Source of the DNA: Cupriavidus necator
GTDB lineage: Bacteria; Pseudomonadota; Gammaproteobacteria; Burkholderiales; Burkholderiaceae
Length of the DNA stretch: 32,000 bases
NCBI RefSeq assembly: GCF_016127575.1
Contig: NZ_CP066018.1
Coordinates: 3,570,001-3,602,000, forward strand
Direction: 5' to 3'
Both the position numbers and the translations under genes were made by a program. The notes under the pieces were generated by a model. The model did not search any database and was not told where the DNA came from. It saw only the letters and a list, made by a program, of their open reading frames with translations. Positions 4,362-26,088 of this stretch are shown one piece after another; position 1 is the stretch's first letter; each line of letters starts with the position of its first letter.

Positions 4362-4462
4362 GGTTCTCTTTTTTTCAAGGGCCCAGGCAACCGAAAACCA
4401 TATTCCACAAAATCAATGCGTTACGCATGGACTTCACAGCTTAGAAACCGAACTGGCAATTT

Positions 4463-6631: not shown

Positions 6632-6727
6632 GGCCTGACGCACTGGACTAATGTCAGGCGCAGCCAACCTGGATGTAGAAGGCTATTTTTGCCCGTTCCC
6701 CGAAAACTGGAAATCTCCCGCCAGCCC

Positions 6728-7630: not shown

Positions 7631-7882
7631 AGGGCTTGAGTGTTGCCCCGAGTGGAATCTCTCCCGGGCCATTCTACCGAAGGCTTACTGCAACACAGCC
7701 ACGCAAGGGGCAAGGCCACCTCTCGCGAGGAAACTGCTCGTCGGCAGCGGAACGGTTCACGCTCGCCGCCTGATCCCCGCGCATTGGCTGGATGGAAAGC
7801 GTTTCCCTTGCCGCCCGCAAGTACCGCTGCGCCGAAACCGCTAGAGTCGCCCACGCCGCGGTTGCCGCCGTCCGTGGGCATC

Positions 7883-7994
7883 GTGAAGAAAATTTGAGGT
7901 TTGTGCGACGCAAGCGTGAGCCCTGTTTCTCATACTGCAGCACAGAGACAGCTACCCCTACTGTCCATCCAAATCTGATGTCGGGGTATGAATC
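7883..7994 (+). promoter_or_regulatory. conserved promoter/5'-leader block, copy A (paralog of 15798..15910)
   Basis: Hand alignment with 15798..15910 gives roughly 70% identity. Perfectly shared islands are GTGAAGAAAATTTGA, CAAGCGTGAG, CATACTGCAG and CAGAGACAG. The distance to the ATG is almost the same (112 vs 113 nt). Confidence 0.55.
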
Positions 7995-8606
7995 ATGAAG
8001 AGAGAACAGATCAGCCGCGGTGCCAATGCAACCATGCTCGCGCAGTGCATCGCCGACGCTGCCACGCAGGTACTTGCCGCGCGAGGCGACGGCGAGCAAG
8101 CTATGAAGGGTAGCGAGGCAGGCTGGCAGGCGCCGGTCGCGCAGTGCGAAGCGGCAGGCGAGCCGCCGCTTGGCGCACACTTGGTCACGCAGCGTCGCGG
8201 CTACAGCCACCACGGCATATATGTGGGCAACGGCCGCGTGCTGCACTATGCGGGCCTTTGCCGTGGGCTGCACACCGGGCCGGTGGAAGAGCTGAGCCTG
8301 GAACACTTCGGCGCCGGCCATGGCATCGAGGTAAGAACCGAGTCGCTGCCGCGTTTTACCAGCGACCAAGTGGTCAGGCGGGCACGCTCGCGCTTGGGCG
8401 AGAACCGCTATCGCCTGCTGAGCAACAACTGCGAACACTTCTGTACCTGGTGCCTGTATGGCGAAGCCCGCAGCGAGCAGGTCCGCCAATGCGCCATCCA
8501 CCCCATGCGCATACTCCGCGTGCTGAGCTCCCTGCTGTCAGTTTGGTGGAACAGCCGGCCAGCCCATGCGCTGCTTGCAGCCGGCTTCAATGATCGCTCT
8601 CCCTAG
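7995..8606 (+). CDS. LRAT / NlpC-P60 superfamily (lecithin retinol acyltransferase-like) protein with a bufA-derived 5' end
   Basis: 203-aa ORF. The catalytic-type motifs are YSHHGIYVGNGRVLHYAG and YRLLSNNCEHFCTWCLYGEARSEQV. The first ~30 codons are about 74% nt-identical (49/66 over the first 22 codons, counted by hand) to the signal-peptide codons of the DUF2282 gene at 15911. Confidence 0.75.
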   Translation: MKREQISRGANATMLAQCIADAATQVLAARGDGEQAMKGSEAGWQAPVAQCEAAGEPPLGAHLVTQRRGYSHHGIYVGNGRVLHYAGLCRGLHTGPVEELSLEHFGAGHGIEVRTESLPRFTSDQVVRRARSRLGENRYRLLSNNCEHFCTWCLYGEARSEQVRQCAIHPMRILRVLSSLLSVWWNSRPAHALLAAGFNDRSP

Positions 8607-8741
8607 AGCATGACCTTTCCGGTGGCCTATTCGACTAAGCCGTTGATTCATAAAAATGTAGGACCGTTGCGATACGCTGCCCCAATGTCGCCGACCCGCC
8701 GGTCGTTCATGGCGTCGTCGCGACTGACGCCCCGGGCCCAT

Positions 8742-8861
8742 TCAGGCCTTGTTGCCGAGGCTAAGATCGGCGTCCAAGTCACAGGCGGTTCGGCGCTGCG
8801 CCTGCTCGGCGACCACGAGCCGATCGGCGAGCGCCGCCGCCTCGGCTTGAGACCGCGCCAA
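8742..8861 (-). pseudogene. internally deleted KfrA-like remnant (41 codons)
   Basis: 8765-8865 aligns by eye to 2535-2625 joined directly to 3341-3356 of the larger kfrA-like gene. It translates as MARS|QAEAAALADRLVVAEQAQRRTACDLDA..., compared with MARSPTD... and ...EAQAAALADRLAAAEQSQRKAANDLDA in the large copy. Confidence 0.5.
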
Positions 8862-8872
8862 ACCGGGGCTGA

Positions 8873-9235
8873 TTAAGCGGCAAAGCGGTGGTCGTTTTCA
8901 TCGGCGATGGAGGGATACCATCGTTCAGAATGCGGGGCTGGTCATTGAGCACGGCCGTCCGGATCTGTAGCAGTGCGTGCGCGTGCTGCAGTCGCCAGGC
9001 CATCTGTTGCCGTTTGACGAATCGCTTGCTGATCACCTGGTTGACGGCCGATTCGACGAAACCCGATGCAACGTGCTCCCCGTGGCGGAAGCGGTCACCG
9101 CAGTTCACGATGAAGTGCCGGCTGTTATCCAGATAGACGATGAACTCCTCGAGCTTGCCGAGGAGCTTGGCCTCCTCGGGAATGGCCTCAGCGTCGAGAT
9201 CCCAGTAGCATCGATCTGGTGTCGTCTGCGCGCAG
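8873..9235 (-). mobile_element. transposase C-terminal fragment (family uncertain, possibly ISKra4-like), with an internal frameshift
   Basis: The minus strand reads CYWDLDAEAIPEEAKLLGKLEEFIVYLDNSRHFIVNCGDRFRHGEHVASGFVESAVNQVISKRFVKRQQMAWRLQHAHALLQIRTAVLNDQ. The frame then shifts to ERWYPSIADENDHRFAA-stop (TAA at 8873-8875). The pattern (ES-x-VN-x-x-ISKRF-x-K-x-QQM-x-W...LLQ-x-RT-x-x-LN) is transposase-like from memory. No N-terminal half is present. Confidence 0.45.
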
Positions 9236-9325
9236 CCTCAACAGGCATCAGTAGCAGCTACACTGGCCATGTGCGCGACGGCGTCGTCAAGCGCGCCTTA
9301 CTGTACCCGATGCACTGTGGCCTTC

Positions 9326-9362
9326 AAAAAAGAAACACCCCCGCAAGGGTATCCTCCGGGGG
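9326..9362 (-). terminator. rho-independent terminator downstream of the small secreted repeat protein
   Basis: The minus strand reads CCCCCG-gaggatacccttg-CGGGGG followed by TGTTTCTTTTTTG, about 64 nt after the stop at 9426. Confidence 0.6.
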
Positions 9363-9425
9363 CGGGCGACTCGCAAATGGACGCATAGAGGGCGCGCCCA
9401 TCACTTGGGGTACTTCTTCAAGCCC

Positions 9426-9653
9426 TTACTTTTGTGAGCCCTCTTCGACGTACCCATCGCGGTTGGTGATTCTCGCGCCATCCGTAAACACATCCCGTCT
9501 ATCGGTGGTTGCTCTGCCACCATTGGTATAGGGGTCTCGCGGCCCCATCACAGCGCCATCGGTATAGACATCGCGCATCCCGATGCCGGCATCAGCAACC
9601 CCGACACCGAGCGCGGCACTCGCCGCAACGAGCAATAAGACTTTCTTTAGCAT
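9426..9653 (-). CDS. small secreted protein (75 aa) with four R-D-x-(Y/F)-T-D/N-G type repeats
   Basis: A strong SD (AAGGAGGTGGAAA-ATG) precedes the ATG at 9653. The signal peptide is MLKKVLLLVAASAALGVGVADA. The repeats are MRDVYTDGA, PRDPYTNGG, RRDVFTDGA and NRDGYVEEG. A terminator follows. Confidence 0.7.
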   Translation of the reverse strand: MLKKVLLLVAASAALGVGVADAGIGMRDVYTDGAVMGPRDPYTNGGRATTDRRDVFTDGARITNRDGYVEEGSQK

Positions 9654-9741
9654 TTTCCACCTCCTTTTCAGGCGGTTACATGGTTCCATTCAATATGATT
9701 TGCGCACTGTAGCTTAAGCAGTTGAGTAGACGATTCGGGAT

Positions 9742-9813
9742 GACATTCCCGCGCAGGCGGGAATCCAGCGTCTTTTTAAAGTCACTGGGTTCCTGCCTTC
9801 GCGGGAACGACAG
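9742..9813. repeat. inverted pair of REP-like palindromic units
   Basis: Unit 1 (9742-9770) contains TTCCCGCGCAGGCGGGAATCCAG. The reverse complement of unit 2 (9783-9813) contains TTCCCGCGAAGGCAGGAACCCAG, giving 20/23 identity. Each unit is itself a hairpin (ATTCCCGC-gcag-GCGGGAAT). Confidence 0.6.
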
Positions 9814-9878
9814 TGGTTATCTGAACGGCATCGCCCCGGGTGGCGCAGTTGCTGTGGGCACTCGTCATTCTTGCCGGA

Positions 9879-10145
9879 TCAGCGTGCGGCGGCCTCTCTC
9901 TGGGCCGCCCGCAGGCTTTCATAGACGGCAAATCGCCGTTGATATTCCGCGCTGTTGACATCGGGGCCGCTATCGCCGTGCCAGTACTCGGCCAGGCCTG
10001 CGCGTGTCCAGGCTTCAAGGTCGGCACGCACTTCGGCGCGCGTCAGGGGAAGGGCCGCACCGCTGGCGTTGGCGGCATGTGCCGCGACAGCGAGCGTCGA
10101 GAAGAGCAGGGCAGCGGCGAGGGAAGAGATCGTGATGGGTTTCAT
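9879..10145 (-). CDS. DUF4148-like small periplasmic protein
   Basis: 88-aa ORF with signal peptide MKPITISSLAAALLFSTLAVAAHA. LTRAEVRADLEAWTRAGL is typical of Burkholderiales DUF4148 proteins. Confidence 0.7.
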   Translation of the reverse strand: MKPITISSLAAALLFSTLAVAAHAANASGAALPLTRAEVRADLEAWTRAGLAEYWHGDSGPDVNSAEYQRRFAVYESLRAAQREAAAR

Positions 10146-10664: not shown

Positions 10665-11930
10665 TTATCCGGCACCGGGCGCTGCCTGTGCCCGGGTCAG
10701 GTGTTCAAGGACGGCTTTGCGCTCTATCTCGGCGGCGGCACGCGCGGTAAAGATGCGGTACACGTAGTCCATCAGGACTTCTTCCTCCTTCATCTTTCGA
10801 ATGTTGAGGAAGGCCATGTGCCCGATCACCTTGCCCTGACTGTCCTGGATGGGCAAGCCGTAATAGGATTCGAAGCCCTGCTCTCGCGGAAACAACTTGC
10901 CAATCCCCTCCGGGTAGAACACCGGCAAGCCATGGTCGAAAACCGCCTCGCAAGGCGTGCCGGCCAGGTCGTACTCGACGTTGTCGCGAAAGTCATCCTT
11001 GAACCAGAAGGCCAGCGTGTGGACACGCCGTGGCGGCCACCTGGTACATTCCGTAACGAAGGCGCAGGGGACGTCCAGTGCGCCAGCGAAGTGGCGGACC
11101 AGTGCGCGGAAAAATTCGTCGCCACAGGTGCCGGAGGTGCCCTCGACGATGTGCTTGAGAATCTCTTCGACGCGCCTGATACGGGTCACATCGGTATCCA
11201 GGCCGACCAGCCGCAATGCCTTGCCGTTGGCATGGCGAATGGCGCTGCCCAGCGAATTGACCCACCGGTAGTACCCGTCCTTGTGCAGCAAGCGGCACTG
11301 CTGCTGATAGCGCGGGCTGGCACCCTCGAGGTGGCGTGCCATCGCCTGCTCGACCGCGAGCAGGTCGGCGGGATGTACCCGTTCTTTCCAGGCCTGCAGG
11401 CTATCCGGCAGTTCGTCTTCTTCAAAGCCGAGCATGGCCTTCCAGCGTTGCGACAGGTGGAATTCGTTGGTCTGGAAATTCCATTCCCACTGGCCGTCAT
11501 CGGCGCTGCGCATGGCCAGGGTATAGCGTTCTTCGCTGGAACGCAGCGCGATTTCCTGCTGTCGGCGCTGTTCCATCGACAACGCCAATGTGCTTTGCGA
11601 CGACTCGACGCACGCGCGCAAGTCCGTGACGACCTGGCGAATCTGCTCGAATTCATCAGGGGGCTTGCCGCGGCCGGCGCCATCGTTGCGTGATACCTGG
11701 GATGCGGCGCAACTGCGCAGCAGCGCGCTAAGCGGACGTCCCCAGAAGGCGTGAATAGCAAGGGCGAGCACGCCAAGCAGCAACGCCAGCCCGGCCGCCG
11801 CCACCAGTGCGATGCCCGTGCGCGTGCCGGGCGGGCCCGCGCCGGGCACCCAGCCGAGCAGGAGGTAGGCAATCAGCAGCAGGCTGATCAATGCCGGCGG
11901 CAGCAGCAGCTTTGCTCTCAGGCCCATCAT
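10665..11930 (-). CDS. membrane-anchored PAS-GAF sensor protein without a recognisable output domain
   Basis: 421-aa ORF with two N-terminal hydrophobic segments. A PAS-like block follows (ERYTLAMRSADDGQWEWNFQTNEFHLSQRWKAMLGF...VHPADL...YRWVNSLGSAIRHANGKALRLVGLDTDVT), then a GAF-like block (FFRALVRHFAGALDVPCAFVTEC...YYGLPIQDSQGKVIGHMAFLN). The stop comes right after the GAF linker helix. Confidence 0.7.
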   Translation of the reverse strand: MMGLRAKLLLPPALISLLLIAYLLLGWVPGAGPPGTRTGIALVAAAGLALLLGVLALAIHAFWGRPLSALLRSCAASQVSRNDGAGRGKPPDEFEQIRQVVTDLRACVESSQSTLALSMEQRRQQEIALRSSEERYTLAMRSADDGQWEWNFQTNEFHLSQRWKAMLGFEEDELPDSLQAWKERVHPADLLAVEQAMARHLEGASPRYQQQCRLLHKDGYYRWVNSLGSAIRHANGKALRLVGLDTDVTRIRRVEEILKHIVEGTSGTCGDEFFRALVRHFAGALDVPCAFVTECTRWPPRRVHTLAFWFKDDFRDNVEYDLAGTPCEAVFDHGLPVFYPEGIGKLFPREQGFESYYGLPIQDSQGKVIGHMAFLNIRKMKEEEVLMDYVYRIFTARAAAEIERKAVLEHLTRAQAAPGAG

Positions 11931-12228: not shown

Positions 12229-13089
12229 ATGCTATCCACCAGCCTCCACCCCAATATGGGAGCCGCCATCCCGCCCCGGGCCGGGATCGGCTTGCGCGCC
12301 CCACACTATCGCCAGGTCCTGGCGGAAACGCCCGCGACAGGGTGGTTCGAAGTCCATAGTGAAAACTACTTCGGTGATGGAGGTCAGCCCCTGCACTACC
12401 TTGCACAGGTGCGGGCCGCCCACCCGCTGAGCCTGCACGGCGTCGGCCTGTGCCTGGGCGCTACGGACCGGCCGGATCGCGCGCACCTGCAGCGGCTGGC
12501 TGCCCTGCTCCGGCGCTTCCAGCCAGGGCTGGTATCCGAACATCTGAGCTGGGGCCGCATTGGAGACCGCTACCTCAACGACCTGCTGCCGCTGCCCTAC
12601 ACGGAGGAATCGCTCGCCGTCGTGTGCGAACACGTGCAGGAAGTACAGGACTACCTGCAACAGCAGTTGTTGGTGGAGAACATCACCAGCTATCTCCGGT
12701 TCAGCCACTCGACGATTGCCGAGCCCGAGTTCATCGCCGCGCTGGTGGCGCGAACCGGTTGCGGCATCCTCCTTGACGTCAATAACATCTACGTCAACGC
12801 GGTCAACCACGACACCGATGCATCGGGCTATATCGATGCGATCCCCGTGGGCGCGGTGAAGGAGATCCACCTGGCTGGCTTTGACCACAGCGGCGGCATG
12901 CTGATCGACACCCACGGCCAGCGCGTGGCAGAGCCGGTATGGAGACTCTATCGGCATGCGCTCGCCCGCTTTGGCCCGGTTCCGACCCTGATCGAGTGGG
13001 ATACCGACATTCCCCCGCTCGAGGTACTGCTCGACGAAGCCCGCAGGGCAGACCAGATGCTGGAGACCGACGATGCCTTCATTGCATGA
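12229..13089 (+). CDS. bufB: MNIO / DUF692 family enzyme (bufferin-type RiPP maturase, BufB/GigA-like)
   Basis: 286-aa ORF with motifs AGIGLRAPHY, WFEVHSENYF, LSLHGVGL, LVSEHLSW, VENITSY and EIHLAGF, which are characteristic of the TIM-barrel DUF692 family. An alternative start is ATG 12256. Confidence 0.8.
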   Translation: MLSTSLHPNMGAAIPPRAGIGLRAPHYRQVLAETPATGWFEVHSENYFGDGGQPLHYLAQVRAAHPLSLHGVGLCLGATDRPDRAHLQRLAALLRRFQPGLVSEHLSWGRIGDRYLNDLLPLPYTEESLAVVCEHVQEVQDYLQQQLLVENITSYLRFSHSTIAEPEFIAALVARTGCGILLDVNNIYVNAVNHDTDASGYIDAIPVGAVKEIHLAGFDHSGGMLIDTHGQRVAEPVWRLYRHALARFGPVPTLIEWDTDIPPLEVLLDEARRADQMLETDDAFIA

Positions 13090-13879
13090 GATCCAGTGTC
13101 GTTTTGCCCGGGCGGTGCTCGAGCAGGACCCGGCTGCACTGTTCGACCACATCGTCGGCGGCGCCATGGACGCGCAGCGGAGCCTCGGCATTTACGCCGG
13201 CAACGTGCGCCACAACTTGTGCGAGGCGCTGCGCGCCGTATTCCCCGTGATCGAGCGCCTGGTGGGCGAGCCGTTCTTCGATGCCACGGCGGGCCGGTAT
13301 ATCCGGGCCTGCCCATCCACCAGCGGCGACATCCAGCGCTTCGGCAAGAGCTTTCCGGACTTCCTCGCGCAATTCGGACCGGCTGCGGGCGTGCGCTACC
13401 TGCCCGATGTGGCAAGGCTCGAATGGCTGACGCATGAGGTTTTCCATGCGGCAGACGCCGAGCCGCTCGCGCTGAAGCGCCTGGGCGCGCTCGCCGAGGC
13501 TGATGCCGCATGCCTGCGCCTGAAGCTGAACCCGGCCTGCCGCTTACTCGCGTCCCCATTTCCGGTGCTGCATATCTGGCAGGCGAACCAGCCAGATCAT
13601 GCGGACGCTATCGAGATCGACGCCGACAGCGGCGGCGACTGGCTGCTGGTCAGGCGCAGCGGCTTTGTGGTCGAAGTGCAGTCCCTGAATGTCGGCGAAT
13701 ACGCCATGCTCGACGCACTGGATGGCGGTGCCGCGCTCGAGCCGGCGTATCAGCGGGCGCTGCAGGCTGCGCCCGGCTTCGCACTGGCCGACTTTATCCA
13801 GCGACGCATCCTAGACGCGACGATCATTGATTTCGACGCCTGCGCTGCTGGCCTTATCCCCGCGCCAGGTCGATCGTAA
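13073..13879 (+). CDS. bufC: DUF2063 family partner protein of MNIO enzymes (BufC/GigB-like)
   Basis: 268-aa ORF overlapping bufB by 17 nt. The N-terminus LHEIQCRFARAVLE...LGIYAGNVRHNLCEALRAVFPVIERLVGEPFF...YIRACPSTSGDIQRFG is typical of DUF2063. The DUF692-DUF2063 pairing is canonical. Confidence 0.75.
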   Translation: MPSLHEIQCRFARAVLEQDPAALFDHIVGGAMDAQRSLGIYAGNVRHNLCEALRAVFPVIERLVGEPFFDATAGRYIRACPSTSGDIQRFGKSFPDFLAQFGPAAGVRYLPDVARLEWLTHEVFHAADAEPLALKRLGALAEADAACLRLKLNPACRLLASPFPVLHIWQANQPDHADAIEIDADSGGDWLLVRRSGFVVEVQSLNVGEYAMLDALDGGAALEPAYQRALQAAPGFALADFIQRRILDATIIDFDACAAGLIPAPGRS

Positions 13880-14906
13880 AGGCAGTGCCCTTGCCGAGCG
13901 CGCTGCGCACACGGATCTCGCCGCCGTGCAACTGCACGATGCGCCGGCTGATGGCCAGCCCGAGACCGACGTTGCTGCCATTGTCAGACTCCGTACGCTC
14001 CACTCGGTAGTAACGGTCGAACACACCCTGCACCTGGCTCGTGTCTATGCCCTGGCCGGTATCGCGCACGGTCAGTTCGACGCGCTCCCCGGCGGCCTGG
14101 ACGTCGACGCTGATTTCTCCGCCGGCAGGCGTATAGCGCATGGCGTTCTCGATCAGGTTCTCCAGCACCCGCTCGATCATGCCGATATCGGCGCTCACCG
14201 GCGGACAACCGGGACCTGACGTCGCCAGCAGGGCCAGCCCGCGCTTGTTTGCCGCCAGGGCGAACTTCTGGACCACGTCCTGCGCCAGTTCCGACAACGG
14301 GAAGCTCTCCAGCCGCGGCTGGACCTCCCGCGCTTCGAGCTTGGTCAGGTCAAACAGGTCCTGCACCAGCTTGCCGAGCCGTTCGCAATGCCTGGTCGCC
14401 ACCTGCAGGTAGCGATTGCGGTCCTCGGGCGTCATCTCTTCGGCTTTCAGCAGCAGCATTTCCAGGTAACCCTGCATCGATGCGAGCGGCGTACGCAGGT
14501 CGTGGGAGACATTGGCAAGCAGCTCGCGCCGTTGCTGGTCCACCTGTGACAGCTGGGCGAGCTGCGTGACAATCCGCTCGGACATCTCCTCGAACGCCGT
14601 GCTGAGCTTCTGGATCTCGTCGTCCGCACGGCCGTCTCGCGCCAGTCGCACCGGCGTGGAAAAACCGCCAGCCCGGAATGCCTCGATGGCCTCCGACAGC
14701 ACGCGCAGCCGTACCGTCAACAGCCGAAACACGATCAGCGCCGCCACCAGGCTGAAGGCCACCGTACCGATAATGAGGTCGGTCGCCAGTTCGATCAGGC
14801 GCTGCGTCTCGATCATCTTCTGGGAGGCCAGGATCATCAGCGCGCCGATGGTAATGAACACCGCCATCAGCACCACCGCCAGCCTGCCGTAAAGGGTGCG
14901 GATCAT
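13854..14906 (-). CDS. sensor histidine kinase (two TM helices, very short external loop, HAMP-HisKA-HATPase)
   Basis: 350-aa ORF. The H-box is LLANVSHDLRTPLASMQGYLE, the N-box VLENLIENAMRYT, the G-boxes DTGQGI and GLGLAI. About 15 aa (SQKMIETQRLIELATD) lie between the two hydrophobic helices. Its 3' end overlaps the bufC 3' end by 26 nt, convergently. Confidence 0.85.
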   Translation of the reverse strand: MIRTLYGRLAVVLMAVFITIGALMILASQKMIETQRLIELATDLIIGTVAFSLVAALIVFRLLTVRLRVLSEAIEAFRAGGFSTPVRLARDGRADDEIQKLSTAFEEMSERIVTQLAQLSQVDQQRRELLANVSHDLRTPLASMQGYLEMLLLKAEEMTPEDRNRYLQVATRHCERLGKLVQDLFDLTKLEAREVQPRLESFPLSELAQDVVQKFALAANKRGLALLATSGPGCPPVSADIGMIERVLENLIENAMRYTPAGGEISVDVQAAGERVELTVRDTGQGIDTSQVQGVFDRYYRVERTESDNGSNVGLGLAISRRIVQLHGGEIRVRSALGKGTAFTIDLARG

Positions 14907-14939
14907 GGAATCCCCTTTCCCTTCCCCTATTGCGCCCTA

Positions 14940-15638
14940 TTACGTATTGCAGAACTTGTAGCCCACGCCCCAGACGGTCTGGATGTACTCCGGCTCGTTG
15001 GGGTCGAGTTCGATCTTGGCGCGCAGCCGGTTGATATGCGAACTTACCGTGTGCTCGTAGCCACTGTGGCTATAGCCCCAGACCTGGTCCAGCAACTGGG
15101 CGCGGCTGAAGACGCGCCCCGGATTGCTGGCAAAGTAGAGCAGCAGCTGGAATTCCTTGGCGGTGAGGCAGATCGGCGTGCCGCGCACGCTCACTTCACG
15201 CTTGTCGATATCGATGTGCAGGGCCTTGACCTGCACCGTCCTGGGACCATCGGATGGCGGGTTGGCCAGGGTGTCGACCAGCCGGAAGATCGCCTTGACC
15301 CGCGCGGTCAGCTCAAGGACGCTGAACGGCTTGGTCAGGTAGTCGTCGGCGCCCATCTCCAGTCCCAGCACCCGGTCCAGTTCAGTCGAGCGCGCCGTGA
15401 GCATGAGGATGGGGGTATAGCGCGGTTCCGCGCGCAGGCGCCGACAGATTTCCAGCCCGTCGGCGCCCGGCAGCATCAGGTCCAGGATGACCAGGTCATA
15501 GGGACGACTCAGCGCCTCTTCCAGTCCCGCCCTGCCGTGGTTGATCACCTTCACGTCGCAAGACAGCCCGCTCACCTGCAGCCGTACCAGTTCGGCGATA
15601 TCTGCGTCGTCCTCGATCACCAGAACCTGGCGCGACAT
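14940..15638 (-). CDS. OmpR/PhoB-family response regulator
   Basis: 232-aa ORF. The receiver reads VLVIEDD...DLVILDLMLPGADG...MLTA...KP. The winged-helix C-terminus reads LTAKEFQLLLYFASNPGRVFSRAQLLDQVWG...HINRLRAKIE...IQTVWGVGYKF. Confidence 0.9.
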   Translation of the reverse strand: MSRQVLVIEDDADIAELVRLQVSGLSCDVKVINHGRAGLEEALSRPYDLVILDLMLPGADGLEICRRLRAEPRYTPILMLTARSTELDRVLGLEMGADDYLTKPFSVLELTARVKAIFRLVDTLANPPSDGPRTVQVKALHIDIDKREVSVRGTPICLTAKEFQLLLYFASNPGRVFSRAQLLDQVWGYSHSGYEHTVSSHINRLRAKIELDPNEPEYIQTVWGVGYKFCNT

Positions 15639-15910: not shown

Positions 15911-16237
15911 ATGAACAGTGATCAAATTATCCGCGGCGCGATTGCAGGCATGCTGGCGCTTGGCATTGCCGGCGCTACCTCTCAGGCCATGGCAGCGGCA
16001 GGCAGCAATGAAAAATGCGCGGGCATTGCCAAGGCCGGCAAGAACGACTGTGGCACCAGCAAGAGTTCCTGTGCCGCCACGGCCAAAATGGACCGCGACG
16101 CGGAAGCCTGGATCCTGGTTCCCGCGGGCACTTGCGAAAAGATCGCCGGAGGTCGGCTGCAGACGTCCCAGTTTGCCAAGCCAGGTGGCAAGAGCGGCGA
16201 ACTCAGCCCGGCCGCCAAGGCGGCCCACCCGGCCTGA
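15911..16237 (+). CDS. bufA: DUF2282 Sec-signal Cys-containing peptide (bufferin BufA1/GigP-like RiPP precursor)
   Basis: ATG 15911 lies within track ORF 15809..16237, with a GGAG SD at about -13. The signal peptide is MNSDQIIRGAIAGMLALGIAGATSQAMA. The core is EKCAGIAKAGKNDCGTSKSSCAATAK...WILVPAGTCEKIAGG, with four Cys spaced C-x10-C-x6-C-x20-C. A 27-aa Lys/Ala/Pro-rich tail follows. Confidence 0.8.
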   Translation: MNSDQIIRGAIAGMLALGIAGATSQAMAAAGSNEKCAGIAKAGKNDCGTSKSSCAATAKMDRDAEAWILVPAGTCEKIAGGRLQTSQFAKPGGKSGELSPAAKAAHPA

Positions 16238-16331: not shown

Positions 16332-16841
16332 ATGAAATGCACGACCCCCCTGTCGTCCACGCCGCTGGATGTGGCCGACGCAAAGCCTTCGCGCCTCATC
16401 GGAGCCGGGCAGGCGGCGATCCGCCTGCTGGAAATGCTGGCTCCCGTGCTCGATCTCGGCATTCGCGTACTGATCGGCCTGGTGTTCTTCCAGTCCGGGC
16501 TGACCAAGCTCGCCAGCTGGTCCACCACGCTGGCGTTGTTCGAAAGCGAGTACGCCGTGCCGCTGCTGAGCCCGACCCTGGCCGCCTATCTTGGTACCGC
16601 CGCGGAGCTGTGCCTGCCGGTGCTGCTCGTGCTCGGGCTCGGTACGCGGGCAGCCGCGCTGGCCTTGTTCGTCTTCAACATAGTCGCGGTGATCTCGTAT
16701 CCGGGATTGGGCGAGGTTGGCCTGAAGGACCACCAGTACTGGGGGCTCCTGCTGCTGGTCACGCTGCTGCACGGCCCGGGCCGGCTGTCGCTGGACCACC
16801 TGATCGACCGCTTCCTGCTGCGCGGCAAGGGCAGCCATTAG
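16332..16841 (+). CDS. bufD: DoxX-family membrane protein (BufD/GigT-like)
   Basis: 169-aa ORF. IRVLIGLVFFQSGLTKLASW...LFESEYAVPLLSPTLAAYLGTAAELCLPVLLVLGLGTRAAALALFVFN...GPGRLSLDHLI is typical DoxX. Confidence 0.8.
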   Translation: MKCTTPLSSTPLDVADAKPSRLIGAGQAAIRLLEMLAPVLDLGIRVLIGLVFFQSGLTKLASWSTTLALFESEYAVPLLSPTLAAYLGTAAELCLPVLLVLGLGTRAAALALFVFNIVAVISYPGLGEVGLKDHQYWGLLLLVTLLHGPGRLSLDHLIDRFLLRGKGSH

Positions 16842-16882: not shown

Positions 16883-18310
16883 ATGCTTGCAGAGAACAAC
16901 ATCGTCATCATCGGTGGTGGATTCGCCGGCACCACGCTGGCCCAGGCGCTGGAGAAGCTGCTGCCGACGACTCACCGGCTGATCCTCGTCAGCGACGAAA
17001 GCTACACCACCTTCAACCCGATGCTGGCCGAGGTGGTGGGTGCCTCGGTCTTCCCTGAACACGTGATCGTGCCGATCCGCCAGATGCTCAGGCGCACCCA
17101 GTTCATCATGGGCACCGTGCAGGACGTCAACTACGCCCAGGGCAAGCTGTCCTGCACGACCCTGGCGGGCCTGCGCGAGATTCCCTTCGACCACCTGGTG
17201 TTTGCCTTCGGCACTCGAGCGAATCTCGACCTGGTGCCAGGCATGGCCGAGCACGCCCTGCCCCTGAAGCTTGTGGGTGACGCCCTGTTTATCCGCAACC
17301 GCGTGTTGCGCCAGCTGGCCCGCATGGAACTGGAGTCGGACCCGGTCCTGCGCCGCCGGCTGGGCCATTTCATCGTGGTGGGCGGGGGCTTTTCGGGCGT
17401 GGAGGTTGCCGGGGAACTCGCCGATTATCTTTGCAGCATCCGGCGCTTCTACCCGCGCGTGCAGCGCGAAGAGCTGGCGGTGACGCTGCTCCATGACACC
17501 GGGCAACTGCTTTCCGAGTTGCCCGCCTCGCTTGGCATGGCCGCGGCACGCCATATGGCCGCGCGCGGCATCCGGCTCAGGCTCGGTACCCGGGCCCTCC
17601 GCTTCGAAGCCGACACGGTGGTGCTGGCTGACGGCGAAATGATCGAAGGTGCAACGGTGGTCTGCACCGTCGGCACCAGGCCGAATCCGCTGGTCGCCAC
17701 CCTGGAGCGCAATCTCGCACTAGCCACCCGGCGCGGACGCATCGAGACCAACCCGGATATGTCGGTGCGCGGCATGCCCGGACTGTGGGCCATCGGCGAT
17801 TGCGCACGGGTGGCCAACGCCGCCACCGACGAGGATTCGCTGCCAACCGCGCAGTTCGCCGTGGCTCAGGCGCGCCAGCTTGCCCATAACCTCGCCGGCC
17901 ACCTGGAACAGCGTGAAAGCAAACCGTTTTCGTACCAGAGCAAGGGCGCGATGGCCAGCATCGGGCATATGAAGGGCGTTGCCCAGGTGTATGGCTTCAG
18001 CTTCTCGGGCTTGCCGGCCTGGCTGGCCTGGCGTGCGCTGTACCTGATGCGCATGCCGACGCTCGGGCGCAAGCTGCGCCTCTGGGCGGAATGGACGTTG
18101 TCCATGTTCTTCCCGACTGACATCACCCACCTGCGCTTTACACGCACCAGCGAGGCAGACGAATCGCCACCCGATGGGCTGCCACCCCACCGCCCACAAG
18201 CGCCGGGTGCATCGGCAACCCGCATTGCAACGCATGACTTTTCCGGGATACCGCGGACGCCCTACGCCACCCCCGCCGCCCCCACGCTAACAGGAGATCA
18301 ACATGCTTGA
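16883..18310 (+). CDS. ndh: type II NADH:quinone oxidoreductase (NDH-2, FAD-dependent pyridine nucleotide-disulfide oxidoreductase)
   Basis: Internal ATG 16883 of track ORF 16265..18310, with SD GAAAGGAA. Motifs are IVIIGGGFAGTTLA, FIVVGGGFSGVEVAGEL and LWAIGDCA, plus a membrane-associating C-terminus. The upstream 206 codons of the track ORF overlap DoxX and are rejected. Confidence 0.8.
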   Translation: MLAENNIVIIGGGFAGTTLAQALEKLLPTTHRLILVSDESYTTFNPMLAEVVGASVFPEHVIVPIRQMLRRTQFIMGTVQDVNYAQGKLSCTTLAGLREIPFDHLVFAFGTRANLDLVPGMAEHALPLKLVGDALFIRNRVLRQLARMELESDPVLRRRLGHFIVVGGGFSGVEVAGELADYLCSIRRFYPRVQREELAVTLLHDTGQLLSELPASLGMAAARHMAARGIRLRLGTRALRFEADTVVLADGEMIEGATVVCTVGTRPNPLVATLERNLALATRRGRIETNPDMSVRGMPGLWAIGDCARVANAATDEDSLPTAQFAVAQARQLAHNLAGHLEQRESKPFSYQSKGAMASIGHMKGVAQVYGFSFSGLPAWLAWRALYLMRMPTLGRKLRLWAEWTLSMFFPTDITHLRFTRTSEADESPPDGLPPHRPQAPGASATRIATHDFSGIPRTPYATPAAPTLTGDQHA

Positions 18311-19085
18311 AGGAAAATCAGCCATCGTTACCGGCTCCAGCAGCGGTATCGGGCTTGGCATTGCGCGCGCCTTTGCCGCCCATGGCGCCGATGTACTGCT
18401 GAACGGCTTCGGCGATGCCGAGCAAATTGAAGCCACGCGTGCAGGGCTGGAGGGCGAGTATGGCGTGCGCGTGCGCTATTCGCCGGCGGATATGAGCCAA
18501 CCTTGCCAGGTTCGCGAAATGGCCGAATTTGCTGCATCCGAGTTCGGCAAGGTTGACGTCATCGTGAATAACGCGGGCATCCAGCATGTTGCCCCGACCG
18601 AAGAGATGCCGGACGACAAGTGGGACGCCATCGTTGCCATCAACCTGTCCTCGGCGTTCCACCTGATCAAGGCCGTCCTGCCCGGCATGAAGGCCAGGCG
18701 CTGGGGCCGCATCATCAATATCGCCTCCGCCCATGGCCTGGTGGCTTCGCCGTTCAAGGCGCCCTATGTCGCCGCCAAGCACGGGCTGATCGGCCTGTCC
18801 AAGGCTGTGGCGCTGGAGACGGCCGAGTTTGGCATTACCAGCAATACGATCTGCCCCGGCTATGTCAAGACGCCGCTGGTGGAACAGCAGATCGCCGACC
18901 AGGCGCGCGCGCACCGGATCTCGCCCGCCGACGTCGTGCGCGATGTCCTGCTGGTGCACCAGGCGCGCAAGGAGTTCGTGCGGATTGACGAACTTGCTGT
19001 CCTGGCCCTGTTCTTGGCCTCGGACAATTCAGCCTCGATGACCGCCACTGCGCTCGCAATGGATGGTGGCTGGACCCAGCACTGA
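18303..19085 (+). CDS. bdhA: 3-hydroxybutyrate dehydrogenase (SDR family)
   Basis: 260-aa ORF with SD AGGAG and an 8-nt overlap with ndh. Motifs are TGSSSGIGLGIA, NNAGIQHVAP, ASAHGLVASPFKAPYVAAKHG and ICPGYVKTPLVEQQI, ending GGWTQH. This is the classic D-beta-hydroxybutyrate dehydrogenase pattern. Confidence 0.8.
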   Translation: MLEGKSAIVTGSSSGIGLGIARAFAAHGADVLLNGFGDAEQIEATRAGLEGEYGVRVRYSPADMSQPCQVREMAEFAASEFGKVDVIVNNAGIQHVAPTEEMPDDKWDAIVAINLSSAFHLIKAVLPGMKARRWGRIINIASAHGLVASPFKAPYVAAKHGLIGLSKAVALETAEFGITSNTICPGYVKTPLVEQQIADQARAHRISPADVVRDVLLVHQARKEFVRIDELAVLALFLASDNSASMTATALAMDGGWTQH

Positions 19086-19094: not shown

Positions 19095-20156
19095 ATGTCG
19101 ACCAATCCTGGAACGCGAGATGCCGGAGAAACCGGCCAAGCCGTGAAGCCGATCACGCTGGCGCTGCAAGGCGGGGGTGCCCATGGTGCCTTTGCCTGGG
19201 GCGTGCTGGACCGCCTGCTCGAAGACGGCCGGCTTGCAATCGAGGGCGTCAGCGCCACCAGCGCCGGCGCGATGAATGCCGCGGTGCTCGCGTACGGCCT
19301 GCTCCAGGGCGGGCCGCCACGCGCCCGCACCGCCCTGCACGACTTCTGGCGCGACGTTGCCAACGCCGCGCGCGCCAGCAACCCGTTCCGCAAGCTGCCA
19401 TGGGAGACCTTGCTGCACAACGGCTACGGGCTCGATTACTCGCCGATGTACCTGCTGACGGACATGATGCTGCGTGTGCTGTCGCCCTACCAGTTCAACC
19501 CGCTCAACTTCAACCCGCTGCGCGACGTGCTGGCCCGCCATGTCGACTTTGACGCGCTTAACCAGCACTGCCCGATCCACCTTTACCTGTGTGCGACCAA
19601 TGTCGAGACCGGCAAGGTACGCGTGTTCTCGCGCGACGACATCAGCCTGAAGGCTGTGCTGGCTTCTGCCTGCCTGCCGTTCCTGTTCCAGGCGGTGGAA
19701 ATTGGCGGCGAACACTACTGGGACGGCGGCTATGTCGGCAACCCCGCCATTTTCCCGTTGATCTACAACTGTGGCGCGCGGGATGTGGTGATCGTCCATA
19801 TCAATCCTATCGTGCGCAAGGGTGTGCCGAAGACCGCCGCGGAGATCCTCAATCGCATCAACGAGGTCAGCTTCAACTCCTCGTTGATCCGCGAACTGCG
19901 CGCCATCAGCTTCGTCACCAGGCTCATCCAGGATGGCAAGGTCAACCGCGGGGAAATGAAGGAGATGCTGATCCACTCGATCCGCTCGGACCAGACCATG
20001 ATGGCGCTCGGCGTCTCCAGCAAGCTCAATGCCGACTGGGACTTCCTTTGCTATCTGCGCGATCAGGGCCGGGACGAGGCCGGGCGCTGGTTGCAGCAGA
20101 ACTACAGCGCAATCGGTGAACGGTGCAGCGTCGACTTGCACCAGGAATTTCTTTGA
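19095..20156 (+). CDS. patatin-like phospholipase family protein
   Basis: 353-aa ORF. LALQGGGAHGAFAWGVLDRLLED is the oxyanion GGG(x)xG motif, GVSATSAGAMNA is the G-x-S-x-G nucleophile, and YWDGGYVGNPA is the catalytic Asp DGG motif. Confidence 0.8.
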   Translation: MSTNPGTRDAGETGQAVKPITLALQGGGAHGAFAWGVLDRLLEDGRLAIEGVSATSAGAMNAAVLAYGLLQGGPPRARTALHDFWRDVANAARASNPFRKLPWETLLHNGYGLDYSPMYLLTDMMLRVLSPYQFNPLNFNPLRDVLARHVDFDALNQHCPIHLYLCATNVETGKVRVFSRDDISLKAVLASACLPFLFQAVEIGGEHYWDGGYVGNPAIFPLIYNCGARDVVIVHINPIVRKGVPKTAAEILNRINEVSFNSSLIRELRAISFVTRLIQDGKVNRGEMKEMLIHSIRSDQTMMALGVSSKLNADWDFLCYLRDQGRDEAGRWLQQNYSAIGERCSVDLHQEFL

Positions 20157-20218: not shown

Positions 20219-20725
20219 ATGACTACCACCAAGCAAGCCGTACCCGTCTGGCATCGCGCGATGCGCGGCGCGATCGTCACCGTCACCCTGTCCCTCGTCT
20301 CAGTGATGGCCTACGCCGGCCAGTGCCCCGCCGACAAGCGCGTCGCGGATGGCCAGGGGCAGCGGCCTGGCGCGACAGAACCCAAGGGCGTCACCGATAC
20401 AGTGCGCGCCTCGACCGACCTTTCGAAGGAGCCGGCAGCCGTAGCGGGACGCCTGCTGCGGCTGCGCCAGCTCGACGTGCAGCCCGGTGGCATCGTGCCA
20501 TGGCACAGCCACAACAACCGCCCGGCAATCATCTATATCGTCTCCGGCGAGATCGTGGAGTATGCGAGCAACTGCGCGGTTCCGATCGTACACCGCGCCG
20601 GCGACGTGACCGCGGAGAGGAACGGGACTTCCCACTGGTGGAAGAATGAAGGCGGCAGCCCCGCAGTCTTGCTGTCGTCCGATCTCTTCCCGGTCGAAAT
20701 GAAGATGGACCCGCATACTATGTGA
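20219..20725 (+). CDS. exported cupin-domain protein
   Basis: ATG 20219 lies within track ORF 20123..20725, with a GGAG SD. The hydrophobic N-terminus is AIVTVTLSLVSVMAYA. The cupin core is VQPGGIVPWHSHNNRPAIIYIVSGEIVEY...GDVTAERNGTSHWWKNEG. Confidence 0.7.
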   Translation: MTTTKQAVPVWHRAMRGAIVTVTLSLVSVMAYAGQCPADKRVADGQGQRPGATEPKGVTDTVRASTDLSKEPAAVAGRLLRLRQLDVQPGGIVPWHSHNNRPAIIYIVSGEIVEYASNCAVPIVHRAGDVTAERNGTSHWWKNEGGSPAVLLSSDLFPVEMKMDPHTM

Positions 20726-20772
20726 ACAGTTGCGGGGACGGCTACCTGCGCATGCCCGAGGATGATGCGCCC

Positions 20773-21789
20773 ATGAAACTCATGCTGCTGAGTCTGTCCT
20801 TTGCGGGCGCCCTGCTTTGCGCCGCCGTGATGGGATTCGCCATCCAGCGCGGCGCAACCTGTGCGGTCGCCGCGGTCAGCGAGATCACGTCATCGCGCAG
20901 TTGCTCGCACCTCCGTGCCATGGCAGAAGCGTCGCTGTACGTGTGTGGCGGACTGCTGATCGCGCAGCGGTTGCATCTGCTTCCGGCCATGCCGTCCGGC
21001 TATCCGGTCGATGGCCTGACCGTCCTGGGAGGCGCCCTGCTCGGGCTGGGCGCCTTCATCAATGGCGCATGCGTATTCGGCGCCATCGCCCGGCTGGGCA
21101 GCGGGCAATGGGCGTATGCTGCCACACCCCTCGGATACTACGCAGGCTGCGTGGGGCTGCTTGCGCTGTGGCCGCAAGCCGAGCGCCCGGCGCTCTCAGC
21201 CACCTCGCCGGTATGGGGTGCTGCGCCGCTGCTGACAGTGCTTTTCCTTCTGTTCGTCGGATGGCGGCTGCTCCGTCTGTGGCAGCGGGCGCGACGCCAT
21301 GGCGCTCCTGCACCCTTGGAGCAAACGTGGCATGCACGCGTTGCCGCCCGGATCTGGTCACCGCACCATGCCACCACGGTGATCGGTGTCACCTTCTTGC
21401 TGCTCCTGTTGCTGGCAGGCGCGTGGTCATACACCGAGGTGCTGGCCGAACTGGCACGTGGCAGCGCTGCCATGCTGCCGGCACGGGCATTGCTGTCGCT
21501 GGGGCTGCTCGCTGGTGCCATCCTCGGCGGGATGAGCGCTGGCCGCCGCGAAGGTCCCGCGACTTCCAGTGCGCAGTGTCTCCGGTGCTTCACAGGCGGT
21601 GCCATCATGGGCTGGGGCGGCATGCTGATTCCGGGCGGCAACGATGGACTGCTGCTGGTCGGCATGCCCCTGCTGTGGCCGTATGCATGGGTCGCATTCG
21701 GCACGATGTGCGTCACCATCGCGCTCGCGCAATGGCTTCAGCGTCGGCTTGGCCAGACCGCTACGACTCCGGGCGCCCCGCAATCCTAG
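20773..21789 (+). CDS. YeeE/YedE-family (sulfur-compound transport-like) polytopic membrane protein
   Basis: ATG 20773 is preferred (GAGGATGA SD). Alternative starts are GTG 20722 (overlapping the cupin stop) and ATG 20752. Motifs are GFAIQRGATCAV, FINGACVFGA and GMLIPGGNDGLL, with many hydrophobic helices. Confidence 0.65.
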   Translation: MKLMLLSLSFAGALLCAAVMGFAIQRGATCAVAAVSEITSSRSCSHLRAMAEASLYVCGGLLIAQRLHLLPAMPSGYPVDGLTVLGGALLGLGAFINGACVFGAIARLGSGQWAYAATPLGYYAGCVGLLALWPQAERPALSATSPVWGAAPLLTVLFLLFVGWRLLRLWQRARRHGAPAPLEQTWHARVAARIWSPHHATTVIGVTFLLLLLLAGAWSYTEVLAELARGSAAMLPARALLSLGLLAGAILGGMSAGRREGPATSSAQCLRCFTGGAIMGWGGMLIPGGNDGLLLVGMPLLWPYAWVAFGTMCVTIALAQWLQRRLGQTATTPGAPQS

Positions 21790-21843
21790 GCAAGACTAGC
21801 AGGACCAGTCGTGTTGCACTGCTGACAGTCTGAAGGAGTAAGC

Positions 21844-22131
21844 ATGAGCCACCGTATCGGGAACGCGCTGGTGATCGCGACCGCGCTCGCTGCCGTCGGG
21901 CTTGCGATCAAGCAGAACACGCATCTGCTGGCCAGTTCCCCGGCACACTTTGCCCTGGACCGTGAACGGTGCTTCGGCGTAGCCAGGGCAGGCAGGAACG
22001 ACTGCGGCACCGCGCTGCACGCTTGCGCGGGCCGCGCCCGCCACGACGCCGCCGGCGATGAATGGCTGATGCTGCCCGCCGGCACCTGCGCCCGGATCGC
22101 GGGTGGCAGCCTCAGGTCTGCCGCACCCTGA
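21844..22131 (+). CDS. bufA: second DUF2282 Sec-signal Cys-containing peptide (orphan bufA-like precursor)
   Basis: 95-aa ORF with a strong SD (AAGGAG). The hydrophobic N-terminus is ALVIATALAAVGLA. The core ERCFGVARAGRNDCGTALHACAGRARHD...WLMLPAGTCARIAGG has the same C-x10-C-x6-C-x20-C spacing as the copy at 15911. Confidence 0.75.
   Translation: MSHRIGNALVIATALAAVGLAIKQNTHLLASSPAHFALDRERCFGVARAGRNDCGTALHACAGRARHDAAGDEWLMLPAGTCARIAGGSLRSAAP

Positions 22132-23708: not shown

Positions 23709-26088
<2,380 letters not shown>

Follow-up and report, generated by a model that had tools for sequence, protein, structure and literature searches.

A second DUF2282 precursor linked to an adenylate cyclase in an extended bufferin cluster of Cupriavidus necator

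Introduction

Bufferins are a recently defined and very large family of peptides that are made on the ribosome and modified after translation (RiPPs) and, to my knowledge, they have so far been known only as periplasmic copper buffers. In this article, I will discuss a stretch of 32,000 nucleotides (nt) from Cupriavidus necator (contig NZ_CP066018.1, positions 3,570,001 to 3,602,000 of the forward strand; hereafter the window), in which a gene at positions 21844-22131 encodes a second DUF2282 (Buf1-family) precursor and is followed directly by a gene for an adenylate cyclase with six transmembrane (TM) segments. What is new here is a monophyletic bufferin subtype locked to such a cyclase, together with an extended cluster that joins bufferin maturation to NDH-2, to polyhydroxybutyrate (PHB)/ketone-body enzymes, to a divergent YeeE-like protein and to a predicted exported cupin, with a phosphodiesterase joining in some relatives. 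The reading that I favor, at a probability of roughly 55%, is that the precursor is a Buf1-family paralogue of a monophyletic, cyclase-coupled subtype, that it would be matured in trans by the BufB/BufC pair of its own cluster, and that the cyclase would be its partner.

The nearest described counterpart is bufferin 1 of Caulobacter vibrioides (BufA1, CCNA_03363; PMC11626156, PMC12452194), which likewise has a DUF2282 domain, four cysteines at the same spacing and the NDCGT/C-A contexts of the two cysteines that turn into 5-thiooxazoles, and bufferin 1 and the gig/bufABCD operons resemble the window in a Sec-type hydrophobic N-terminal segment of the precursor, a BufB-equivalog MNIO, a DUF2063 partner and a DoxX gene. 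However, unlike a bufABCD precursor, the window DUF2282 gene is not the first gene of its array but the penultimate one, 8 kb from bufBC; unlike Buf1, its product falls in a separate clade (marked by RERC, a His before Cys III and EW), has no C-terminal tail and has a cyclase next to it; and most members of this clade are accompanied by a two-component system rather than by SigF/NrsF, with a Noviherbaspirillum locus (L007) keeping sigma/NrsF in place of the response regulator and histidine kinase. It has been established that recognition of Buf1 by BufB/BufC uses the core peptide and that the signal peptide is dispensable (PMC11626156), that 'sizeable proportions' of Buf1 precursors lie away from an MNIO and are proposed either to be modified by a distant MNIO or to stay unmodified, and that extra conserved genes occur in bufferin clusters 'in extremely low proportions' (PMC12452194). 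Cupins, YeeE, patatins and nucleotide cyclases go unmentioned in the bufferin papers and in the captophorin preprint.

The adjacency of a DUF2282 gene and a cyclase gene was recorded earlier only for the GIG-homologous 'H4' cluster of Legionella pneumophila (lpg0671-lpg0676), the genes of which were listed in 2017 as 'unlikely to be transcribed as a unit', without a function or a family-level pattern (PMC5413113). H4 contains a DoxX-NADH dehydrogenase, an acetoacetate decarboxylase, a DUF2282 gene (lpg0673), an adenylate cyclase (lpg0674), a DUF2063 gene and a DUF692/MNIO gene; it has the DUF2282-then-cyclase order of the window and of the Legionella metagenome-assembled genome (MAG) L040, with lpg0673 and lpg0674 being compared here by description only, and it differs from the window in lacking a cupin gene, a YeeE-like gene, a bdhA-patatin pair and a second canonical bufA.

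A DUF2282 subtype found only beside a cyclase

The genes on which the argument turns are the following.

21844-22131, forward strand: second DUF2282 (Buf1-family) precursor, cyclase-linked subtype, 95 amino acids (aa), PF10048
22154-23584, forward strand: six-TM class III adenylate cyclase, 476 aa, Guanylate_cyc domain, starting 22 nt past the DUF2282 stop
15911-16237, forward strand: bufA1, canonical DUF2282 precursor and first gene of the array, 108 aa, PF10048 at 84 bits
12229-13089, forward strand: bufB (MNIO), NF050167 MNIO_BufB at 385.9 bits against a cut-off of 310
13073-13879, forward strand: bufC (DUF2063/HvfC_N), PF05114 and PF09836

The DUF2282 subtype to which the window gene belongs exists solely as the gene directly upstream of a six-TM class III adenylate cyclase. 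One genome per GTDB species was scanned with a profile of the subtype, the 80 loci recovered were annotated by phmmer with the window proteins, and once metagenomic loci had been added and duplicates removed the census set comprised 49 non-redundant loci, in every one of which (49/49) the cyclase lies directly downstream of the subtype DUF2282 gene at gene-call gaps of -1 to +58 nt. Five loci of the same subtype stand outside this count, two that end just past DUF2282 (L021, L033) and three with fragmentary cyclase matches (L043, L044, L064). Subtype was assigned by adjacency together with the tree, the best phmmer score alone having misfiled canonical bufA genes that scored ~70 bits. Among the taxa represented are Cupriavidus, Paraburkholderia, Trinickia, Massilia, Undibacterium, Janthinobacterium, Noviherbaspirillum, Aromatoleum and other Rhodocyclaceae, and further Azotobacter chroococcum, Azohydromonas, Aquabacterium, a Legionella MAG, Berkiellales, Rudaea and a Pseudobdellovibrionaceae MAG. 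The best locus of the scan, CP158805.1 ('Ralstonia pickettii RAL3 chromosome 3'), has a DUF2282 that is 100% identical, and since its other proteins score slightly below the self-scores of the window proteins it is a very close relative and not demonstrably the same sequence. The DUF2282-cyclase pair is also found as a minimal unit (L037, L042, L044) and, in L040, adjoining the MNIO pair.

The same division is drawn by the trees. When 117 DUF2282 proteins were joined by neighbor-joining (88 columns, no bootstrap support), one bipartition parted 45 cyclase-linked members, two truncated contigs among them, from 72 others with no exceptions, and a tree of 110 cyclases placed those linked to DUF2282 in one clade (45 vs 51), again with no exceptions, indicating that DUF2282 and cyclase were paired a single time, within a broader family of cyclases, and have stayed together ever since. 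An exhaustive profile search clustered at 50% gave 1,361 DUF2282 clusters, about 10 of which exceed 100 bits with the subtype profile, and the subtype is therefore a small slice of the DUF2282 family.

The precursor

The Pfam search placed the product of 21844-22131 in PF10048/DUF2282 (78.6 bits, E=3.5e-22, cut-off 22.4), a family that Pfam now calls 'BufA1', and a protein search returned 64 homologues at 53-94% identity, all of them in PF10048 and from at least five genera, so that by sequence this is a real gene, well beyond chance. GAAGGAG sits five nt ahead of its ATG. The four cysteines (C43, C54, C61, C82) form the pattern C-x10-C-x6-C-x20-C, which is invariant in 65 relatives, and the protein aligns with bufA1 across the four-Cys core without a gap, the residues around Cys II and around Cys III (NDCGT...C-A) being identical in the two, and the 27-aa C-terminal tail of bufA1, RLQTSQFAKPGGKSGELSPAAKAAHPA, is replaced by 7 aa. 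Among the residues that are specific to the subtype and (near-)invariant in the alignment, and not found in bufA1, are N7, T26-H27, F36, R40-E41-R42, H59 and E73-W74; R40-E41-R42 precede Cys I, H59 stands two residues before Cys III, and in the loops between the cysteines conservation among the 65 relatives is complete for H59 and at least 90% for R48 and for R64. A hydrophobic N-terminal helix spans residues 5-23 by hydropathy and 3-25 in the AlphaFold2 model, where its predicted local distance difference test (pLDDT) exceeds 90, and N7, T26 and H27 are unusually conserved; the helix may be a Sec signal peptide or a signal anchor.

The first-pass annotation of this DNA, prepared from the letters and open reading frames, had pointed to this second DUF2282 frame, its strong Shine-Dalgarno sequence, the cysteine spacing of bufA1, the missing 27-aa tail, the His/Arg in the loops and the Sec-like N-terminus, and these observations were confirmed, the last of them as the hydrophobic helix just described; it did not mention the cyclase gene 22 nt behind the stop. 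Its label 'bufA2' is best treated as informal: 'BufA2' in the literature denotes the Buf_6/12Cys family with six or twelve conserved cysteines, the window protein has four cysteines only and, at 27.3 bits, stays below the cut-off of 60 that applies to the NCBIfam model Cu_RiPP_BufA2 (NF050166), and by sequence the gene is a second Buf1/DUF2282 paralogue, not Buf2. NCBI annotates members of the cyclase-linked subtype as 'BufA1 family periplasmic bufferin-type metallophore', and caution is warranted with such names, as they include a distinct cyclase-associated group. Tandem two-domain DUF2282 proteins of ~165-200 aa also occur among the best matches to the subtype profile (P0311, P0314, P0315, P0317, P0318, P0324), P0311 having one signal peptide followed by two complete four-Cys cores.

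The cyclase

AlphaFold2 models the cyclase (mean pLDDT 78.5) as six TM helices followed by a long helical domain and a class III catalytic domain, the helices running over residues 46-79, 93-113, 119-143, 154-168, 173-197 and 207-259 ahead of the catalytic fold; the fourth TM helix is weak by hydropathy, and the topology was taken from hydropathy and the positive-inside rule. Three extracytoplasmic loops are predicted, all of them short and conserved, and the loop-1 motif P-x-x-F-x-P-D-x-P is conserved solely in the DUF2282-linked cyclases. D294, D338, K334, T408 and N415 are invariant, as is K419 where Arg is canonical, and the K/T pair presumably denotes adenine specificity of the class IIIb kind. 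Many class IIIb cyclases respond to CO2 or bicarbonate.

By sequence the catalytic domain is nearest to Cya2 and CyaB, and by Foldseek the model matches Rv1625c/Cya of Mycobacterium tuberculosis (7yzk) across 442 columns, an enzyme for which no periplasmic peptide partner is known. Both proteins have six TM segments, a helical domain in the cytosol and a catalytic domain of class III (7yzk/7yzi; PMC9433096), and they differ in that identity is only ~18%, that the window cyclase has K/T vs K/D and that a Lys replaces the transition-state Arg. The TM domain of Cya has been proposed as a receptor of unknown extracellular ligands (PMC9433096), and the modulators reported for it are lipids (PMC12505454).

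When metagenomes were scanned with the cyclase profile, 80 full-length relatives at 39-64% identity were found, and the gene upstream could be evaluated for 62 of them, being DUF2282 in 8, patatin in 6, a metallo-beta-lactamase (MBL)-fold gene in 6 and something else in 42. Those with patatin upstream have the order bdhA-patatin-cyclase-cupin, except that L158 is without the cupin.

The maturases and the array

The window holds a single MNIO match and a single DUF2063 match, both at 12229-13879, and this competent-looking maturase pair ends 7,965 bp before the DUF2282 start (DUF2063 stop 13879, DUF2282 start 21844), in agreement with the ~8 kb and the sole pair noted at first pass. Between them and beyond bufA1 lie these genes.

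13854-14906, reverse strand: histidine kinase, antisense between bufBC and bufA1
14940-15638, reverse strand: OmpR-type response regulator, antisense between bufBC and bufA1
16332-16841, forward strand: DoxX (BufD-type) membrane protein, PF07681, HvfX-family match below cut-off
16895-18310, forward strand: NDH-2-type flavoprotein, Pyr_redox_2 and NDH2_C, start inferred from homologues
18303-19085, forward strand: BdhA, 3-hydroxybutyrate dehydrogenase, TIGR01963 with 355 bits (cut-off 307)
19095-20156, forward strand: patatin-like phospholipase/esterase, PF01734, present in 25 of the 34 long loci that bear the subtype

With the cupin and YeeE-like genes described below, the same-strand order is bufA1-doxX-ndh2-bdhA-patatin-cupin-yeeE-like-DUF2282-cyclase, an operon-like arrangement counted as ten genes with DUF2282 as the ninth, in which the gaps from bufA1 to the cyclase are 94, 53, -8, 9, 62, 47, 54 and 22 nt. 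The terminator scan found no intrinsic terminators above chance between 15.9 and 23.6 kb, the Rfam scan of the array found no riboswitch or other Rfam element, and a consensus promoter scan was uninformative in this GC-rich DNA.

The block is syntenic in Cupriavidus, Paraburkholderia, Noviherbaspirillum, Rhodocyclaceae, Azotobacter and Azohydromonas, with reduced forms in Legionella and Rudaea, and is also seen on contigs of C. necator H850, Burkholderia sp. PU8-34, Paraburkholderia sp. 40 and a Noviherbaspirillum MAG. Its maturase side consists of bufB-bufC, at times followed by an MBL/class-II cyclic-nucleotide phosphodiesterase, and then the antisense response regulator and histidine kinase, a pair kept at the same place in 22 of the 34 long loci; its precursor side reads bufA1-doxX-(ndh2)-bdhA-patatin-(cupin)-(flavoprotein)-(YeeE-like)-DUF2282-cyclase, where brackets mark optional genes, and H850, the closest relative, has the gene order of the window minus the cupin. 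An MNIO gene is present within the locus in 32 of the 34 long loci. Four loci, namely L040 (the Legionella MAG), L056 (Rudaea), L064 and L098, have the subtype as the sole DUF2282 near the maturase pair, and no alternative precursor frame adjoins the MNIO gene in any of these four. The phosphodiesterase (PF02112; weak NF041851 match) follows bufC or the cyclase in L006 (1102-1866), L007 (2976-3740), L010 (1565-2317), L017 (7543-8304) and L056 (11624-12436) and is found neither in the window nor in H850; together with the cyclase it would make up a complete pair for synthesis and degradation of a cyclic nucleotide inside a bufferin cluster.

The gene directly upstream of DUF2282 varies, and over the 46 loci in which it could be evaluated (the DNA being missing in 3 of 49) it is as follows.

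YeeE-like: 20/46
acetoacetate decarboxylase (NF002614, 330 bits): 14/46
patatin: 8/46
flavoprotein: 1/46
something else: 3/46

The decarboxylase occurs somewhere in the cluster in 23 of the 49 loci (in L022, at 9219-10052, and at the equivalent place in L020 it occupies the upstream slot), and the cupin in 13 of the 49, at three positions: between patatin and the YeeE-like gene, upstream of bufA1 (Azohydromonas and Aquabacterium) or downstream of the cyclase (L019). None of the YeeE-like, cupin, patatin, decarboxylase and cyclase genes was found in the 39 canonical DUF2282 loci of the same scan (0/39), that is, those in which bufA is followed by MNIO or DoxX. Acetoacetate decarboxylase and bdhA together would lead from 3-hydroxybutyrate via acetoacetate to acetone and CO2, and one idea, offered here as conjecture, is that this output could be linked through CO2 to the class IIIb-type cyclase. 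The closest parallel for the metabolic genes is the bdhA-patD operon of L. pneumophila, a mutant of which fails to mobilize PHB according to the account of Aurass et al. 2009 that is given in PMC4549902; the likeness, a 3-hydroxybutyrate dehydrogenase gene and then a patatin-like gene, is one of gene order alone, and unlike bdhA-patD the window pair is embedded between bufferin genes and a cyclase. Judged by its gene content, the wider cluster appears to be a bdhA/patatin PHB-mobilization module fused to a bufferin biosynthetic gene cluster.

The YeeE-like protein and the cupin

Two genes separate the patatin from the precursor.

20219-20725, forward strand: predicted exported cupin, 168 aa, Cupin_2 at 43.4 bits, 2.8e-11
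20773-21789, forward strand: divergent YeeE/YedE-superfamily (Sulf_transp) membrane protein, 338 aa, PF04143 at 158.7 bits, E=3.4e-46

The Cupin_2 and Sulf_transp matches uphold the first-pass identification of these neighbors as a signal-bearing cupin and a YeeE/YedE-type protein, whereas the start of the latter, which had been thought to abut or overlap the cupin stop, has to be moved: GTG 20722 is merely the longest-frame start and is rejected because the homologues, without exception, begin to align at ATG 20773. With GAGGA 10 nt ahead of it, this ATG yields the 338 aa that the L001-L004 gene calls also give, and it puts a 47-nt spacer behind the cupin.

The YeeE-like protein shares with YeeE/TsuA (Spirochaeta thermophila 6LEO; TsuA-TsuB 8J4C) the Sulf_transp fold and the motifs QRG-x-x-C and G-x-C-x-x-G, retaining the equivalents of C22 and C91, but the equivalent of C293 is a Gly within an invariant PGGNDG, its NCBIfam scores lie far below the cut-offs (TsuA 19.9 vs 645; YedE/FdhT 24.8 vs 350), the 47- and 54-nt flanking spacers leave no room for a yeeD/TsuB gene beside it, and patatin is a recurrent neighbor. 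A PDB search with the single sequence gave no match, and the subfamily profile reaches 6LEO at E=2e-6. JGI labels many of the relatives 'toxin CptA'. On four long contigs with relatives at 56-61% identity (L168-L171), neither a second DUF2282 nor a cyclase was found (0/4), and the gene upstream is patatin(+DUF3734) in L168, L170 and L171 and cupin in L169. In L168 and L170, where the patatin adjoins the YeeE-like gene upstream, there are no bufferin genes; in L169, ndh2-cupin-YeeE-like runs divergently from bdhA-patatin-flavoprotein-bufA-MNIO; and L171 (2811-12479) has the one-strand operon bufA-doxX-ndh2-bdhA-patatin-YeeE-like-bufB-bufC-RR-HK-PAS (RR, response regulator; HK, histidine kinase), in which metabolic genes stand between precursor and maturases, arguing for functional integration with the bufferin system and not mere neighborhood. 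Since the loci of the relatives follow the bdhA/patatin side of the supercluster without a second precursor, the YeeE-like and cupin genes belong to that side and are not bound to the second precursor.

By sequence the cupin falls within the cupin superfamily, with a signal-peptide-like N-terminus (AYA|GQCP), an AG-x-CP at the predicted mature N-terminus in the family alignment, and two Cys and a His/Glu metal-site motif (C36, H96, H98, E114, C119, H139) invariant among 13 relatives, the His and Glu being putative metal ligands. Five loci (L155, L161, L163, L164 and L165, ~4000-9100 in each) carry a bdhA-patatin-cyclase-cupin module without DUF2282 or MNIO, the L164 cupin lying on the opposite strand ~3.5 kb from the module, and the cupins that accompany these DUF2282-free cyclases are of the same family and have the same invariant Cys and His; the exported cupin may thus be an alternative periplasmic partner of the cyclase family.

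Interpretation

If the precursor is a cyclase-coupled bufferin, its path can be sketched in steps. The pre-protein, with the hydrophobic N-terminal helix described above, would be inserted or exported via Sec; Cys II and Cys III (NDCGT...HAC) would become 5-thiooxazoles through the action in trans of the single BufB/BufC pair, with Cys I joined to Cys IV by a disulfide as in C. vibrioides Buf1; and the mature periplasmic protein would bind a metal, either copper or one related to it, with the His that is invariant in the clade and stands two residues ahead of Cys III perhaps tuning the binding. Maturation in trans is suggested because Buf1 recognition uses the core (PMC11626156) and because the subtype is the sole DUF2282 in four loci. 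The earlier idea that one maturase pair may serve two diverged precursors is supported by context, namely the maturases found in 32/34 loci, the four loci with no other DUF2282 and the shared NDCGT...C-A, and it is probably right; conversely, the label 'orphan' does not hold, the gene being a constant part of a syntenic supercluster of ~12 kb in which the maturases also lie. The last step, in which the protein would be the metal-sensing extracytoplasmic partner of the cyclase membrane domain and would pass periplasmic metal status on to cyclic AMP (cAMP), is a tentative one that I consider possible and yet rather improbable. What makes it plausible is that the adjacency is invariant while other neighbors change, that the partners are reciprocally monophyletic, that the loop-1 motif is clade-specific, that several clusters include a cyclic-nucleotide phosphodiesterase, and that six-TM anchors are proposed in the literature as receptors of unknown extracellular ligands (PMC9433096; also PMC12414865). 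Going one step further, a thiooxazole-bearing periplasmic metallopeptide might be the ligand or co-receptor of the six-TM cyclase, with the cAMP signal ended by the phosphodiesterase and tied to PHB/ketone-body mobilization, and this fuller picture is more doubtful still.

Several results weigh against coupling to the cyclase. All of the evidence for it is comparative. Only 8 of 62 metagenomic cyclase relatives have a DUF2282 upstream, so that the cyclase does not need this partner; the 120 best cyclase relatives include no DUF2282-cyclase fusion, and what makes the entries P0112, P0168 and P0136 longer is an N-terminal extension that has no Cys motif; since the linked cyclases are a single clade, the loop-1 motif and phylogeny are confounded; and predicted cyclase activity is not assured because the transition-state Arg is Lys (K419). 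A mirror-tree comparison over 19 complete loci, a number that gives it low power, detected no co-evolution of DUF2282 with the cyclase TM domain beyond that of the cluster as a whole (partial r = -0.08), all cluster proteins being correlated to an equal degree (Spearman mostly 0.5-0.9; 0.20-0.62 for the cyclase catalytic domain), and it lends no support to a physical interaction. On the side of the precursor, a conserved AxA/signal-peptidase site is not evident in the alignment of the beta-proteobacterial members of the subtype, and the AlphaFold2 core is poor (pLDDT <50 with 65 close homologues as input) and unusable for inferring a fold or a metal site.

The main rival is that the gene encodes a second, independent bufferin of altered specificity (additional His/Arg, loss of the Lys/Ala/Pro tail) that uses the same BufB/BufC and is merely co-transcribed with the cyclase in a shared stress regulon, with neither a physical nor a signaling link: several or tandem precursors per MNIO are documented (PMC12452194), the entire array resembles one operon, most cyclase relatives are without DUF2282 and the mirror-tree gave no specific co-evolution with the TM domain. 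From a plain second buffer, however, one would expect an occasional separation from the cyclase, and instead the genes nearly abut or overlap in 49/49 loci from Beta- and Gammaproteobacteria and a Bdellovibrionota MAG while the other neighbors vary, the pair survives as a minimal unit and also beside the MNIO pair of L040, and DUF2282 and cyclase are reciprocally monophyletic; I therefore regard an independent bufferin as an unlikely explanation, though the most serious of the alternatives. The invariants of the subtype (RERC, HAC, EW) and its conserved N-terminal helix, a possible membrane anchor, could also be those of an unmodified Cys4/His periplasmic subunit of the cyclase, a small accessory protein held by disulfides or metal that would share ancestry with bufferins and not be a RiPP substrate, and precursors distant from an MNIO 'might not be modified' (PMC12452194). 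But MNIO/DUF2063 genes lie within 10 kb in 32 of the 34 long loci, the subtype is the only candidate substrate beside the maturase pair in four, and the flanks of the two modified Cys are invariant with bufA1, which together make such a subunit improbable.

The first-pass annotation had speculated in another direction, toward cupin, YeeE-like protein and DUF2282 as a distinct periplasmic peptide/metal/sulfur unit around an orphan precursor. These are indeed consecutive genes with 47- and 54-nt spacers in the window, consecutive as well in L006, L009 and L010, the cupin is predicted to be exported and has invariant Cys and His, and the YeeE-like protein retains two of the three central YeeE cysteines. 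What survives of the proposal is the looser recurrence of cupin and YeeE-like genes in extended bufferin clusters, set against 0/39 canonical DUF2282 loci, and the adjacency is not unique to this genome; as a unit, it is not supported. The cupin is not in C. necator H850 and sits elsewhere in Azohydromonas, Aquabacterium and L019 (13/49 loci have it at all), the YeeE-like gene is upstream of DUF2282 in just 20/46 loci, with decarboxylase (14) or patatin (8) elsewhere, relatives of the YeeE-like gene stand behind patatin (L168, L170, L171) or cupin (L169) with no second DUF2282, cupins accompany cyclases that have no DUF2282, and the precursor is not an orphan. A specific three-gene module is thus largely refuted and, as an explanation of the locus, very unlikely; the neighborhood census returns the cyclase as the invariant partner, and the cupin and YeeE-like proteins are, on the comparative evidence, lineage-variable accessory members and not dedicated partners of the precursor.

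The case for a cyclase-coupled bufferin matters for several reasons. 'Stand-alone' precursors would gain a concrete explanation in trans-maturation within a supercluster, and the locus offers a tractable bacterial system for asking what the membrane anchors of Cya/mammalian-type cyclases sense. Were the sensing role true, bufferin chemistry would transduce periplasmic metal status into cAMP and so extend beyond copper buffering, a Cya/mammalian-type adenylate cyclase would for the first time have a genetically defined protein ligand of its membrane anchor, and a RiPP-type metallophore would for the first time have a role in signaling.

Other features of the locus

The bufferin gene cluster of the window is split, the antisense regulator/kinase pair (13854-15638) separating bufB-bufC from bufA1-doxX, both of which are on the forward strand, and the bufC and kinase frames converge and overlap by 26 nt. 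Read from its sequence, the kinase (13854-14906) has a ~13-residue periplasmic loop between two TM segments, and it may therefore sense within the membrane or via an accessory protein. One further neighbor diverges from bufB.

10665-11930, reverse strand: membrane PAS-domain protein, PAS_3

This PAS-domain gene is syntenic in the Cupriavidus, Paraburkholderia and Rhodocyclaceae loci.

Behind the cyclase, on the reverse strand, are fragments of an IS6/IS240-type transposase (23763-24050 and 24112-24585) and a truncated sulfatase-like frame (24492-25103), in place of which C. necator H850 (L001) carries genes for a cupredoxin, a metallophosphoesterase and a Fer2-cyclase, so that the 3' border of the cluster is rearranged in the window. 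The IS6 fragments might suggest a mobile island, a reading that was rejected in view of the synteny of the block in different families and of the single phylogeny common to its genes. A CBASS/Pycsar-like defense system was likewise set aside, the CBASS lipase model giving the patatin a score of 23.6 where its cut-off is 200, and is also disfavored by the canonical membrane class III cyclase and by the metabolic and metal context. Lastly, a weakly DoxX-like frame at 281-802 on the reverse strand matches the DoxX of the window at 37-40 bits and is positionally unrelated to the cluster.

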